From positions 240,001 to 272,000 of the forward strand of contig NZ_JHXR01000003.1 of NCBI RefSeq assembly GCF_000621645.1: a stretch of 32,000 nt of DNA, written 5' to 3'. Positions 848 through 4,992 of the stretch are shown here, in pieces (the stretch's first letter is position 1; each line of letters begins with the position of its first letter). The translations under genes were made by a program, and so were the position numbers. Source of the DNA: Vibrio cholerae ATCC 14035 (GTDB taxonomy: Bacteria > Pseudomonadota > Gammaproteobacteria > Enterobacterales > Vibrionaceae). The notes beneath the pieces are model-generated. The model searched no databases. It was not told the DNA's origin and saw only the letters and a program-made list of their open reading frames with translations.

Positions 848-2320
848 TTAGGCTTTCACTGGGATATTGGCGAGTAGTGCCACCATCTGTTGCCAGAACA
901 GATCAACCGTGTCTATCTTCACTTTTTCATCCGGTGAATGTGGGAACTTGATGGTTGGACCGAAAGAGACCATATCCATGTTTGGATAGGGTTTTTTGAA
1001 CAGCCCACACTCAAGACCCGCGTGGATCACCATGATATTCGGTTTGTGGCCATAAATGCCTTCATACATATCACGGAAAATATGCATGATTTCAGAATCA
1101 GCATCGGGTTTCCAGCCAGGGTAAGCACCAGAAAGGTCCAGCTCTGCCCCCGCAAGTTGTGCCAGCGATTGCAACATGCCCTCGACTTGGTGGCGGCCTG
1201 AGTCCATTAGGGAGCGAATCAAGCACAGCACTTTGATTTTGTTGGCTTCTGTGGTGATCACTCCCACGTTGAGTGAGGTTTCTACAACACCTGCAATATC
1301 ATCGCTCATGCGGATCACACCGTTTGGACACGTGTTCAGAGCGGCAACAAAACGTTGTTGAGTGTGCGCGGTCAGCACTTCACTTTGCAGTTCTTTGGCT
1401 TCAAGGAAAGTTACCAAGTGAGTTTCAACCTTACCCAGTTCAGCTTTGAGTAGCTCAGTGTAGCGGTGGAATAAGGTTTCTAATTCGGCTACGTGCTGTT
1501 CTGGCAAGGCGACGGTGACAAAAGCTTCACGCGGGATCGCATTACGTAGACTACCGCCACGGAATTCGACTAAGCGCAGATCTAATTCTTTCGCATGGCC
1601 TGCGAGAAAGCGCGCCATCAGCTTGTTAGCGTTACCACGGCCAGTGTGAATATCACAACCTGAGTGACCGCCTTTCAAACCCTTTAAGATCAGTTGGCGG
1701 CCAACATAACCAGCAGGGATCGCTTCACGCTCAATGGAGAAAGTGAACTCGGCGTTCACGCCTCCCGCGCAGCCCATATAGACTTCACCTTCTTGCTCAG
1801 AGTCGGTATTGAGCAGAATGTCGCCCTCCAGCCAACCTTCTTTGAGGCCAAAAGCGCCGGTCATGCCTGCTTCTTCATCAATAGTCAGCAGAACTTCAAT
1901 TGGACCATGTTGGATCTCTTTAGAAGCCAGTACTGCTAGGCAAGAAGCCATGCCGATACCATTATCCGCGCCAAGCGTAGTGCCTTTAGCAGTAACCCAT
2001 TCACCATCAATATAAGGCTGGATCGGATCTTTGGTGAAATCATGCACTGTGTCTTCATTTTTTTGCGGCACCATATCAATGTGCGCTTGAAGTACCACAC
2101 CTTTACGATTTTCCATGCCCGGTGTCGCTGGCTTTTTAATAAAGACGTTACCGGTCTCATCACGACGAACGGCCAATCCTTGTTCTTTAGCCCAGTTGAT
2201 AATGTATTGAGCTAATGCCTCTTCATGTTTTGAAGGGTGCGGGATGGAACAGATAGTGGCGAAAAATGGCCAAATTGGATTTGACGATAACTTACTGATT
2301 TCGGTTTGGAACTCAGACAC
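848..2320 (-). CDS. pepD: Aminoacyl-histidine (Xaa-His) dipeptidase PepD, 490 aa
   Basis: Collinear with E. coli PepD along its whole length (…IWPFFATICSIPHPS…VVLQAHIDMVPQKN…TTLGADNGIGMA…IHAGLECGLF…). The ORF-track start at 2452 adds 44 non-homologous residues. I place the start at the GTG at 2320..2318, preceded by TAAGGAG with 6-nt spacing, giving MSVSEFQTEISKL…. Confidence 0.93.
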   Translation of the reverse strand: MSEFQTEISKLSSNPIWPFFATICSIPHPSKHEEALAQYIINWAKEQGLAVRRDETGNVFIKKPATPGMENRKGVVLQAHIDMVPQKNEDTVHDFTKDPIQPYIDGEWVTAKGTTLGADNGIGMASCLAVLASKEIQHGPIEVLLTIDEEAGMTGAFGLKEGWLEGDILLNTDSEQEGEVYMGCAGGVNAEFTFSIEREAIPAGYVGRQLILKGLKGGHSGCDIHTGRGNANKLMARFLAGHAKELDLRLVEFRGGSLRNAIPREAFVTVALPEQHVAELETLFHRYTELLKAELGKVETHLVTFLEAKELQSEVLTAHTQQRFVAALNTCPNGVIRMSDDIAGVVETSLNVGVITTEANKIKVLCLIRSLMDSGRHQVEGMLQSLAQLAGAELDLSGAYPGWKPDADSEIMHIFRDMYEGIYGHKPNIMVIHAGLECGLFKKPYPNMDMVSFGPTIKFPHSPDEKVKIDTVDLFWQQMVALLANIPVKA

Positions 2321-2620
2321 AGATGACTCCTTACTGTAATTTTTCCCGTGTATCCTCTCTCCAGAGCTGGGTCGTGGCAGAGAATTTGCCTGTAACAGGT
2401 AGGTACTTTCGTTGCACAGCATATCACTGTGCAGGGGCAGGGTGTAGGTCAAAAGTGGCAGGAAAACGGGTTTTGATCATCGGCTAGCGTCAGGAATGAT
2501 AAGAAGACGTAACGTGACTGAGGTAGGCAAATGCATCTTCATGCACTTTAACTGTAATTTTTCTTAATAAAGTTGTAATTAAATTACTAAAAAATGCTGA
2601 CCAAGATCAATTTAAATGAT

Positions 2621-2642
2621 TTTTGTGATTTTAATCACCTTA
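2621..2642. promoter_or_regulatory. CRP (cAMP receptor protein) binding site
   Basis: tttTGTGAttttaaTCACCtta against the consensus aaaTGTGAtctagaTCACAttt. The left half-site is perfect, the right is 4/5, and the 6-bp spacer is correct. It lies immediately upstream of the candidate promoter at 2647-2674. Confidence 0.6.
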
Positions 2643-2646
2643 AGTG

Positions 2647-2674
2647 TTGTAATTTAATTTCTTGGTGGTATATT
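2647..2674 (+). promoter_or_regulatory. Candidate sigma70 promoter with extended -10 for the sRNA/small-ORF transcript
   Basis: TTGTAA (2647-2652), a 16-nt spacer including TGg (2666-2668), then TATATT (2669-2674). The predicted TSS is near 2681. Confidence 0.4.
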
Positions 2675-2784
2675 TGTGTACAGCTTCGCTAGCGAAGAGA
2701 AAACGCTCAAAGGATGAGTCCGATTTATCGCCTCCATGGAACCGAGAAATCAAGTAAACAGTTTTGATTTTAATGGTGATAGTT

Positions 2785-2874
2785 ATGAATAAAGGTTTAT
2801 CGTCTGCAATGTTCTGGAACCAACACTCTGTGTACACCGGTAACTTTGCATACCCTCGTAGCTTCGGCTACTGA
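2785..2874 (+). CDS. 29-aa small protein MNKGLSSAMFWNQHSVYTGNFAYPRSFGY (VcdP-like)
   Basis: ATG at 2785 preceded by GGTGA (2775-2779, 5-nt spacing). There are 29 sense codons and a TGA at 2872-2874. It is below the ORF-track size cutoff. It is embedded in a terminator-bounded intergenic transcript. Confidence 0.5.
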   Translation: MNKGLSSAMFWNQHSVYTGNFAYPRSFGY

Positions 2875-2958
2875 TACGCAACTTTTGCGTCTCGAACAAG
2901 TTTTGTTCACCCCTAAATTGGAATTTATTGACGACCAAATTTGGTCGATATGATTCAC

Positions 2959-2987
2959 CGCCATCTCACTTGAGGTGGCGTTTTTTT
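2959..2987 (+). terminator. Rho-independent terminator of the intergenic transcript
   Basis: CGCCATCTC-actt-GAGGTGGCG (9 bp including one G-U pair) followed by TTTTTTT. No annotated + strand gene precedes it, which implies an unannotated transcript. Confidence 0.85.
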
Positions 2988-3137
2988 ATCCTCAAAAAAT
3001 CTTCCCTATTCGAACTTGATCGCAACATTCTGTTGGTATTGAGCAATTGACTTATCTTCTGATCGACAGATTCCCTTTTTGGTTAGAAAACCCGCGTACA
3101 GTCAGAATTGTGTCTGGAATTTGTTTTTTGATAACTC

Positions 3138-3143
3138 TATAAT
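3138..3143 (+). promoter_or_regulatory. Candidate -10 hexamer for the permease/gpt transcript
   Basis: Perfect TATAAT 55 nt upstream of the permease ATG. I found no convincing -35 element. Confidence 0.35.
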
Positions 3144-3158
3144 CGCCGCCAATCGTTT

Positions 3159-3174
3159 ACGCAACCGTTTACTT
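3159..3174. promoter_or_regulatory. PurR-type operator (PUR box)
   Basis: ACGCAACCGTTTACTT against the recalled E. coli purF operator ACGCAAACGTTTTCTT (14/16) and the palindromic consensus ACGCAAACGTTTGCGT. It lies just downstream of the TATAAT and ahead of a purine permease-gpt pair. Confidence 0.5.
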
Positions 3175-3197
3175 TTTTACCACTAAAGGATTCGAAC

Positions 3198-4490
3198 ATG
3201 CTGGAAAAGCTTTTTAAACTCAGTGAATACGGCACGAACGTGCGCACTGAGATCCTCGCTGGGGTCACGACTTTCCTGACCATGGCTTACATTATTTTTG
3301 TTAACCCAGCCATTTTGTCGGATGCGGGAATGGATCGCGGTGCGGTTTTCGTGGCGACCTGTTTGGCGGCCGCGATTGGCTGTTTCATTATGGGTTTTAT
3401 TGCCAATTATCCTATCGCTCAAGCGCCAGGTATGGGGCTTAATGCCTTCTTCACTTATGGTGTGGTTCTTGGTATGGGACACACTTGGCAAGTCGCTCTG
3501 GCCGCGGTGTTCTGCTCGGGCGTGCTGTTTATCCTACTCAGCTTGTTCAAAATCCGTGAGTGGATCATCAACTCGATTCCTCACTCTTTACGTACTGGCA
3601 TTTCAGCGGGTATTGGTCTGTTCTTAGCTTTCATCGCATTAAAAAATGCGGGCATTGTGGTCGATAATCCGGCAACACTGGTTTCTTTAGGCGCAATTAC
3701 CTCGCTGCATGCGGTGTTGGCAGCAGTGGGCTTCTTCCTGACGATTGGTTTAGTCTATCGCGGTGTCAAAGGCGCGGTGATGATTGCTATTTTAGCGGTG
3801 ACAGCTCTCGGTCTCGTATTTGGTGATGTGCAATGGGGCGGCATTATGTCTACGCCTCCGAGTATCGCGCCGACCTTCATGCAACTCGATTTCTCTGCTG
3901 TCTTTGAGATCGGCATGATTTCTGTGGTGTTTGCGTTCTTGTTTGTTGACCTATTTGACACTGCTGGCACCTTGGTTGGCGTTGCAACCAAAGCGGGATT
4001 GATCGAAAAAGATGGCAAAATTCCGCGCCTGAATCGTGCCCTGTTGGCGGATTCGACAGCAACGTCTGTCGGCGCTCTGCTCGGTACTTCAAACACCACT
4101 TCTTATATTGAAAGTGTCTCCGGTGTTGCTGTTGGTGGCCGTACTGGTTTAACTGCTGTGGTGGTTGGCATTTTGTTCCTTCTTGCATTATTCTTCTCGC
4201 CACTAGCGGGTATGATCCCAGCTTATGCGACGGCCGGTGCACTTTTCTATGTTGCTATTCTGATGATGTCGGGGTTAGTGAGCATTGATTGGCGTGATCT
4301 GACTGAAGCGGCACCCACTGTTGTTACCTGTTTGATGATGCCTCTGACATTCTCGATTGCGGAAGGTATCTCACTCGGTTTTATTGCTTATGCCGCAATC
4401 AAACTTTTCAGTGGTAAAGGACGCAGCGTCTCTCTCAGTGTATGGGTTATGGCGGCCATTTTTGTCATCAAATACATTTTGGCGGCGTAA
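3198..4490 (+). CDS. adeP: Purine permease, NCS2/AzgA family, most similar to the E. coli adenine permease AdeP (PurP)
   Basis: 430-aa polytopic membrane protein. MLEKLFKLSEYGTNVRTEILAGVTTFLTMAYIIFVNPAILSDAGMD… parallels recalled PurP ([40 protein letters not shown]…). Other conserved blocks: …SYIES.SGV..GGRTGLTAVVVG.LFLL. The AAAGGA SD sits 7 nt before the ATG. Substrate specificity (adenine versus guanine/hypoxanthine) is not determined. Confidence 0.88.
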   Translation: MLEKLFKLSEYGTNVRTEILAGVTTFLTMAYIIFVNPAILSDAGMDRGAVFVATCLAAAIGCFIMGFIANYPIAQAPGMGLNAFFTYGVVLGMGHTWQVALAAVFCSGVLFILLSLFKIREWIINSIPHSLRTGISAGIGLFLAFIALKNAGIVVDNPATLVSLGAITSLHAVLAAVGFFLTIGLVYRGVKGAVMIAILAVTALGLVFGDVQWGGIMSTPPSIAPTFMQLDFSAVFEIGMISVVFAFLFVDLFDTAGTLVGVATKAGLIEKDGKIPRLNRALLADSTATSVGALLGTSNTTSYIESVSGVAVGGRTGLTAVVVGILFLLALFFSPLAGMIPAYATAGALFYVAILMMSGLVSIDWRDLTEAAPTVVTCLMMPLTFSIAEGISLGFIAYAAIKLFSGKGRSVSLSVWVMAAIFVIKYILAA

Positions 4491-4527: not shown

Positions 4528-4992
4528 ATGAGCAAAAAATTCGTTATCACCTGGGACAATATGCAGCATTACTGCCGTGAACTTGCACAGCGTCAAATGC
4601 CTGCAGAACAATGGAAAGGTATCTTGGGTGTCAGCCGTGGTGGCTTAGTTCCCGCTGCTATTCTCGCTCGCGAGTTGGGCATTCGCTATGTGGATACGGT
4701 GTGTATCTCGAGCTATGACCATGATCACCAGCGTGATATGACAGTTCTGAAAGCACCAGAGCATGACGGCGAAGGTTTCTTGATCATTGACGATCTGGTG
4801 GATAGCGGCGATACCGCACGTAAAATCCGTGAAATGTATCCGAAAGCGAAATTTGTGACTGTCTGTGCTAAACCTGCGGGTAAAGACTTGGTTGACGAGT
4901 ACGTGGTTGATATTCCACAAGACACTTGGATCGAGCAACCATGGGACATGGTGCTGTCTTATGTTGAGCCAGTTAATCGCAAGCAAAAATAG
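4528..4992 (+). CDS. gpt: Xanthine-guanine phosphoribosyltransferase
   Basis: 154 aa, near-collinear with E. coli Gpt (…[35 protein letters not shown]…[44 protein letters not shown]). Confidence 0.95.

Follow-up and report, generated by a model that had tools for sequence, protein, structure and literature searches.

The element at positions 2624-2987 of the DNA analyzed here can be identified, with near certainty, as the Vibrio cholerae vcdRP locus (formerly vcr082/Vcr082), which encodes a dual-function RNA repressed by CRP. The analyzed stretch, hereafter called the window, comprises 32,000 nucleotides (nt) of V. cholerae ATCC 14035 (assembly GCF_000621645.1, contig NZ_JHXR01000003.1, positions 240,001-272,000 of the forward strand). 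An earlier reading of these letters without database searches (the sequence-only reading) had proposed a VcdRP-like element or, failing that, an undescribed small-protein/small RNA (sRNA) gene. The former proposal turned out to be correct, as the window contains vcdRP itself, with the published primers and landmarks matching to the base. The fallback does not apply: vcdRP is an already known gene, characterized in 2021 by Venkat et al. (EMBO J 40:e108542; PMC8672173), and its reading as an undescribed gene is excluded. The vcdRP locus thus adds nothing as a discovery; what goes beyond the published work is a near-invariant 5' leader, three species that have lost the open reading frame (ORF), and a conserved PurR-like box.

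Match of the element to the published vcdRP gene

The published gene gives rise to a primary transcript of 306 nt, as sized on Northern blots, with a Rho-independent terminator at its end, an ORF of 29 amino acids (aa) at nt 104-193, and a conserved seed at nt 223-232 that ends in four cytosines (PMC8672173). In order to place these landmarks, the primer sequences of Appendix Table S5 (PMC8672173) were positioned on the window using blastn-short, and 12 published vcdRP oligonucleotides were found to fit exactly or with only the designed change. The transcript starts with AGCUUCGCUAGCGAAGAG; the 5'-phosphorylated +1 cloning oligonucleotide KPO-1219 matches 2682-2699 exactly, the reverse cloning primer KPO-1220 corresponds to 3011-3030, and the Northern probe KPO-2040 to 2936-2958. 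The truncation primers start at 2732, 2832, 2901 and 2917, which leaves 256, 156, 87 and 71 nt to position 2987, as published. Moreover, the mutagenesis oligonucleotide that introduces a stop at codon 3 covers 2766-2814 with a single designed mismatch, and the promoter-reporter primers bracket 2523-2687. The primers used to delete the CRP box (KPO-6954/6955) abut 2623 and resume after 2628, so that TGTGA at 2624-2628 is removed; the CRP box named in the sequence-only reading is thus the one that was deleted experimentally. The primers of the electrophoretic mobility shift assay (EMSA) correspond to 2318-2346 and 3179-3200 (the latter with one mismatch), and the resulting fragment 2318-3200 covers the whole spacer.

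Counted from +1 at 2682, nt 104-193 hold the ORF, nt 229-232 are the seed cytosines (CCCC), and nt 306 is the last one of the RNA, all of which equal the published values. The codon-scrambled VcdP oligonucleotides KPO-2330 and KPO-4716 encode MNKGLSSAMFWNQ... and ...AYPRSFGY, in agreement with the peptide encoded in the window. Overall, the window and the published gene agree in position, +1, length, ORF, peptide, seed, CRP site, terminator and isoform ends, and none of the present results conflicts with the experimental properties published for vcdRP (PMC8672173). The basic features are as follows:

2624-2639, plus strand: CRP site TGTGA-N6-TCACC, centred at -50.5 from the transcription start site and 7 nt upstream of the -35 element
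2647-2674, plus strand: vcdRP promoter, with -35 element TTGTAA (2647-2652), a 16-nt spacer and the extended -10 element TGgTATATT (2666-2674)
2682-2987, plus strand: full-length vcdRP transcript, 306 nt, with its start placed by KPO-1219 and its 3' end on the final U of the terminator tail
2775-2780, plus strand: Shine-Dalgarno (SD) sequence GGUGAU (GGTGA at 2775-2779), about 4-5 nt before the ATG at 2785
2785-2874, plus strand: vcdP ORF, 29 codons and stop; VcdP is MNKGLSSAMFWNQHSVYTGNFAYPRSFGY
2904-2913, plus strand: base-pairing seed of VcdR, UGUUCACCCC, RNA nt 223-232, at the same position as in the paper
2959-2987, plus strand: Rho-independent terminator with a 9-bp stem (2959-2980), a 4-nt loop and a U7 tail
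2832, 2901 and 2917, plus strand: 5' ends of the RNase E isoforms of 156, 87 and 71 nt (KPO-2085, KPO-2109 and KPO-2110)

The CRP box, the TTGTAA/TGgTATATT promoter, the GGTGA, the 29-codon ORF, the terminator and the 877-bp spacer all lie where the sequence-only reading had put them, and the properties of VcdRP that it had named (a 29-aa activator of citrate synthase, repression of mRNAs of the phosphotransferase system (PTS), and repression by CRP) agree with the paper (PMC8672173).

The genomic position also fits. Venkat et al. located vcdRP between vc2278 and vc2279, on the minus strand of chromosome 1 (PMC8672173). In the window, the locus is divergent from pepD and upstream of a permease gene, which matches this intergenic placement; it lies on the plus strand here because the window is reversed relative to the reference chromosome. 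We take vc2279 to be pepD and vc2278 to be the permease gene, as in the N16961 annotation.

Several points weigh against this identification, none of them substantive. The machine-read text of Appendix Fig S3 gives NEFYPRSEFY for a part of VcdP where the window encodes NFAYPRSFGY, a difference of four residues; this mismatch can be ascribed to a text-recognition error, because the codon-scrambled oligonucleotides of the same paper encode ...AYPRSFGY, like the window. Four further oligonucleotides (KPO-2085, KPO-2109, KPO-6476 and KPO-IGRR) each deviate from the window by one base or indel. These single-base discrepancies look like recognition errors as well: partner oligonucleotides in Appendix Table S5 conflict with each other at these positions, and KPO-6477, for instance, has a C that is missing from KPO-6476. 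In addition, the V. cholerae reference genome is not among the 80 loci listed in the comparison described below, and the species call is based on the exact PepD and primer matches.

It is worth mentioning that the usual annotation resources do not recognize this gene. An Rfam scan of 2300-3300 with E values up to 10 returned only chance-level matches and no family for vcdRP, the best scores being 19 bits for mir-287 (threshold 80) and 16 bits for Esr41 (threshold 102). The exact 29-aa sequence of VcdP was not found in a collection of 15 billion proteins, VcdP had no match in a Pfam search, and a full-text literature search with the peptide string found no paper, because the VcdP sequence is printed in figures only. 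The element had been called unannotated, and this holds in practice: with the protein unmatched in the collection and in Pfam, and the RNA unmatched in Rfam, standard annotation pipelines overlook a published gene. The reading of the raw sequence thus recovered a real dual-function RNA that annotation had passed over, and elements lacking an Rfam family or a protein-collection entry will go on being flagged as novel in such scans.

Conservation of the promoter, the vcdP frame and the base-pairing part

In order to follow the element in related species, we performed a pepD-anchored scan with one genome per species, which yielded at least 80 loci. Those listed comprise 79 Vibrio loci and a single one of Aliivibrio, and the closest PepD proteins among them were those of V. 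mimicus (94% identity) and V. metoecus (92%). A vcdRP homolog with position and orientation kept was detected by nhmmer (query 2600-2990) in 76 of the 80 listed loci. The comparison shows that the promoter, the ORF frame, the seed and the hairpins are conserved almost throughout the genus, and it widens the seven-species alignment of the paper to 80 species.

The motif TGTGA-N6-TCAC occurs once in the 32 kb of the window. By itself it is weak evidence for a CRP site, because at least one match was also present in 29 of 100 shuffles; binding in EMSA and loss of CRP control upon deletion were demonstrated for this box (PMC8672173). The TGTGA half-site is found at a fixed spacing to the -35 element in 69 of 74 sequences, and CGTGA replaces it in one further sequence. 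TTGTAA is present as the -35 element in all 70 sequences that fit the pattern of the promoter geometry. The -10 hexamer TATATT (2669-2674) is preceded by TG, and this promoter was the sole promoter-like match in a promoter scan of 2300-3250. A sigma-70 promoter with an extended -10 element drives transcription from 2682, with the cyclic AMP (cAMP)-CRP complex acting as a repressor at 2624-2639. According to Venkat et al., cAMP-CRP binds upstream of the -35 element and represses vcdRP transcription (PMC8672173); the RNA is therefore abundant on glucose, when cAMP is low.

A variant of the CRP site was observed in about 15 loci of the V. splendidus, V. atlanticus and V. chagasii group (among them L034, L036, L037, L040, L042, L045, L048, L052, L053 and L056). 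In these loci the TGTGA half-site is kept, the second half-site is GCAAA or GCAAT and not TCACN, and the spacing between the CRP site and the -35 element is reduced by one base. These species may have a weaker or altered control by CRP.

Of the 76 homologs, 73 have an intact vcdP ORF, which encodes 27-34 aa, nearly always 28 or 29. The only common indel comprises a whole codon (N2), and the residues FW, VYT and F.YP..FGY are conserved in the protein. In 71 Vibrio and Aliivibrio sequences, both the SD sequence GGUGAU (G94-T99 of the RNA) and the start codon are invariant. A check for codon-periodic substitution, as suggested together with the sequence-only reading, revealed the expected excess of third-position variation: the entropy of codon positions 1, 2 and 3 is 0.54, 0.52 and 0.88 bits, with no such periodicity in the leader (0.59, 0.53 and 0.45 bits by phase) or in the 3' part (0.73, 0.73 and 0.75 bits). 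Translation of the ORF was shown by a GFP translational fusion and by a western blot of chromosomal VcdP::SPA, and VcdP co-immunoprecipitates with the citrate synthase GltA and raises citrate synthase activity (PMC8672173). The protein arm runs from the 306-nt RNA through the 29-aa VcdP (nt 104-193) to binding of GltA and an increase in its activity.

Some further observations concern the ORF and its surroundings. In locus L026 (2329-2654, minus strand), six residues of the VcdP homolog are duplicated in tandem (FVYPTS FVYPTS FGY), resulting in a peptide of 34 aa. An in-frame ATG at 2773-2775 precedes the published start by 12 nt and overlaps the SD sequence, and it would give a protein of 33 aa beginning with MVIVMNKGL; it is an unlikely start codon, because among the aligned sequences it is limited to the V. 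cholerae/V. mimicus/V. metoecus group and two others. The antisense ORFs at 2640-2837 and 2797-2964 were rejected as genes, since they span regions with indels of differing lengths that three does not divide.

The RNA arm was analyzed by folding and by inspection of the alignment. The region 2855-2987 folds into four hairpins and the terminator with a free energy of -44.0 kcal/mol, compared to -25.8 +/- 3.3 kcal/mol for shuffled sequences (z -5.5). The predicted hairpins of the transcript outside the leader are the following:

2684-2697, plus strand: 5'-terminal hairpin CUUCG/CGAAG, from the fold, with compensatory changes elsewhere, e.g. AGUUGA/UCAAC and CUGCUG/CAGCAG
2858-2871, plus strand: UUCG-loop hairpin, from the fold, covering the last five vcdP codons
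2873-2893, plus strand: second hairpin, from the fold, in a variable, indel-rich linker
2894-2908, plus strand: third hairpin GAACAA/UUGUUC, from the fold, directly 5' of the seed cytosines
2921-2956, plus strand: fourth hairpin, from the fold, with an inner stem (2932-2937/2942-2947) and an outer helix (2921-2925/2952-2956)

The four stem-loops postulated in the sequence-only reading are thus present in the fold together with the terminator; the first of them was said to span the ORF stop, but it ends a single base ahead of that codon (2872-2874). Compensatory changes, whose presence had been suggested as a check, were found in several hairpins; the second one (2873-2893) is not conserved among vibrios (45-60% of cells paired, many gaps). 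The inner three pairs of the UUCG hairpin are conserved, with a compensatory A-U to U-A change in 7 sequences. The helix 2932-2936/2943-2947 is the best supported one, with 9-28 double compensatory changes per pair; the inner stem of the fourth hairpin is paired in 95% and its outer helix in 97% of cells. The alignment also supports the third hairpin (2894-2899 with 2903-2908; 92% of cells paired), the outer helix 2921-2925/2952-2956, the leader helix 2705-2708/2716-2719 and the 5'-terminal hairpin. When this set of helices was compared to 500 shuffles, it exceeded all of them in the percentage of paired cells, double changes and covariation score; four of the five measures were above 500/500 shuffles, the fifth was reached by 3/500, and the structure was also above all slid controls. 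The terminator was missed by RNAalifold on the whole alignment, owing to a 1-nt register shift; when the sequences were folded separately, a hairpin directly before the T-run was found in all 74 sequences, representing 43 distinct 24-mers.

The seed cytosines (CCCC, 2910-2913) are invariant in the 71 sequences and unpaired in the predicted fold; the invariant unpaired stretch extends to CACCCC, and the adjacent linker varies. The function of the seed was established experimentally. VcdR depends on Hfq and represses the ptsG, nagE, treB and ptsHI mRNAs; deletion of the four cytosines or a CC to GG exchange abolishes repression, and compensatory mutations in the targets restore it (PMC8672173). 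The truncations tested correspond to endogenous isoforms, and among the products of RNase E those of 156 and 87 nt are active and that of 71 nt is inactive (PMC8672173). VcdR acts together with Hfq: its single-stranded seed (2904-2913) pairs with the ptsG, nagE, treB and ptsHI mRNAs where their translation is initiated, which reduces the uptake of PTS sugars and, in an indirect manner, the production of cholera toxin.

Both arms were weighed against simpler explanations. That the transcript is a plain non-coding Hfq-dependent sRNA, with a 29-codon frame that arose by chance and encodes no functional peptide, is hardly credible. Short chance ORFs are indeed common, many being listed on both strands of the spacer, and the RNA arm can stand alone, as loci L077, L020 and L044 lost the ORF and kept the seed and the terminator. 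However, a chance frame would not account for its integrity in nearly all homologs, the whole-codon indel, a third-position entropy of 0.88 against about 0.53 bits with flanks devoid of periodicity, the invariant GGUGAU and start codon, and the conserved FW, VYT and F.YP..FGY; the published western blot and GltA data already refute it (PMC8672173). We give equally little credence to the converse view, in which the transcript is only a small-protein mRNA whose structured 3' region serves stability or termination and has no base-pairing role. Hairpins and a terminator would stabilize any short mRNA, but this does not explain why the unpaired CACCCC is invariant and also kept where the ORF has been lost, and the compensatory mutations, together with the repression of the ptsG, nagE, treB and ptsHI reporters by 87-nt 3' fragments devoid of the ORF, have already refuted it (PMC8672173).

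The third alternative concerns the downstream genes. As vcdRP lies upstream of the permease gene on the same strand, with its terminator 210 nt before the permease ATG, the transcript could be conceived as a cis-acting leader or attenuator of the permease-gpt operon, e.g. a purine-responsive element. This possibility is practically negligible: the terminator is strong and conserved in all 74 sequences, the permease gene has its own TATAAT (3139-3144) and PurR-like box (3159-3172; 76 of 80 loci), Rfam shows no riboswitch or leader family, and the published RNA is a discrete species of 306 nt (PMC8672173). We therefore retain the dual-function RNA vcdRP as the identity of the element.

Losses occur within the genus. 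In L077 (2350-2750, minus strand), the TGG of the invariant Trp codon is changed to TAG; in L020 (2360-2700, minus strand), the leader, the SD sequence and the ORF start are deleted and the CRP promoter is kept; and in L044 (2400-2770, minus strand), the 3' half alone remains. Additionally, no vcdRP homolog was found in the pepD upstream spacer (about 2000-3000) of four listed loci (L063, L065, L069 and L074), so that vcdRP is not universal in Vibrio. The spacer is short in L063 and L065, where the first long ORF oriented like vcdRP begins only 364 and 423 nt, respectively, from the pepD start. According to the seven-species alignment of the paper, both modules are always conserved (PMC8672173). 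The species with ORF loss or element loss would qualify this statement. Both modules are retained in almost the whole genus, but the seed can outlast the ORF, which bears on the evolution of dual-function RNAs.

The near-invariant 5' leader

The most conserved part of the whole gene is the leader, in which 27 of 42 positions (RNA nt 24-65) are invariant in the 71 sequences, compared to 19 of 90 positions in the vcdP ORF. The relevant features are:

2704-2751, plus strand: near-invariant 5' leader, from the conservation map, holding the hairpin GCUC/GAGU and AUCGCCUCC
2741-2777, plus strand: leader hairpin of the minimum free energy fold, pairing 2746-2754 with 2763-2771, and with a base (2741-2744 with 2774-2777) that reaches the SD sequence

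The small hairpin GCUC/GAGU (2705-2708 with 2716-2719) is 100% paired, with two compensatory cases. In the hairpin 2741-2777, the arms AAAUCAA/UUGAUUU are conserved and the loop length is variable, and double changes at two pairs occur in 7 sequences. The sequence AUCGCCUCC (2727-2735) is a near copy of the anti-SD sequence of 16S rRNA and is complementary to the invariant vcdP SD GGUGAU. The helix between this anti-SD copy and the SD sequence has a predicted probability ranging from 0 to 0.99 among homologs (mean 0.39), and both of its arms are invariant. Across 68 homologs, the SD sequence itself has a mean predicted probability of 0.12 of being unpaired and would thus be paired for the most part, the pairing partner differing between them. 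RNA nt 1-139 does not exceed shuffled sequences in the stability of its fold (z +0.37).

A conserved upstream ORF starting from the AUG at 2714 (MSPIYRLHGTEKS...) was also considered and rejected: 1-nt indels at 2722-2726 shift the frame in about half of the species, and conservation is equal across the three codon phases.

The leader is dispensable for the repression of PTS targets, as shown by the truncations, and for VcdP action, as shown by a construct with an artificial 5' untranslated region (PMC8672173); neither the 2021 paper (PMC8672173) nor a 2025 review ascribes a function to it. We suggest, tentatively and with more doubt than confidence, that vcdRP may possess a third functional module in its leader (RNA nt 23-70, 2704-2751). 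Judging from its complementarity, a candidate role is translational control, in which AUCGCCUCC, alone or together with the hairpin 2741-2777, could mask the vcdP SD; a second seed and a protein-binding site are other candidates. If true, masking of the SD by the leader would determine how far the transcript is put to coding and how far to riboregulatory use. The conservation of the leader thus raises a testable question, namely how one transcript divides between translation and base pairing.

Related dual-function RNAs and the neighbouring genes

A close functional parallel is SgrS/SgrT of Escherichia coli and Salmonella, a dual-function RNA with no sequence relationship to vcdRP. Like vcdRP, it carries a small ORF upstream and a base-pairing seed in the 3' part, represses ptsG mRNA and protects against alpha-methyl glucoside, as discussed by Venkat et al. 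(PMC8672173). The two differ in their control and in their proteins: whereas SgrR activates SgrS in response to sugar-phosphate stress and SgrT blocks the PtsG transporter, vcdRP is repressed by CRP and VcdP activates citrate synthase. Furthermore, loss of sgrT is frequent, whereas 73 of the 76 vibrios have retained vcdP. CRP also represses two dual-function RNAs of E. coli that act in carbon metabolism and are unrelated to vcdRP in sequence, Spot 42/SpfP and AzuCR/AzuC; the proteins they encode are likewise very small. SpfP binds CRP and AzuC binds GlpD, whereas VcdP binds GltA. The Spot 42 ORF overlaps its seed, in contrast to vcdRP, in which coding and base pairing are assigned to separate modules.

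The genes flanking vcdRP are:

848-2320, minus strand: PepD, from the ORF list
3198-4490, plus strand: PF00860 permease (xanthine/uracil family), from the ORF list and Pfam

The spacer between the two genes (2321-3197) measures 877 bp, with the pepD start GTG at 2320 and the permease start ATG at 3198. The PepD of the window is an exact match to a protein found under V. cholerae names in at least 1000 contigs. Beyond vcdRP, the gene order is PF00860 permease, Gpt and FrsA. The Gpt protein (4528-4992) scores 302.7 bits with the NCBIfam Tet(34) "exception" model, which is under its cutoff of 345 bits, and 254.6 bits with the ordinary xanthine phosphoribosyltransferase model, which is over the cutoff of that model; it should not be taken for a resistance gene.

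Two further sequences were observed in the spacer. The pepD-proximal part contains a perfect inverted repeat TGCACAG-N7-CTGTGCA (2414-2434), which is probably not a conserved operator, as only one other locus has it. A PurR-box-like sequence, ACGCAACCGTTTAC (3159-3172), precedes the permease ATG by about 38 nt and follows the TATAAT at 3139-3144, and it is present at an equal distance from the permease ATG in 76 of the 80 orthologous loci. Given its position and conservation, it is a probable, putative PurR operator of the permease-gpt operon.

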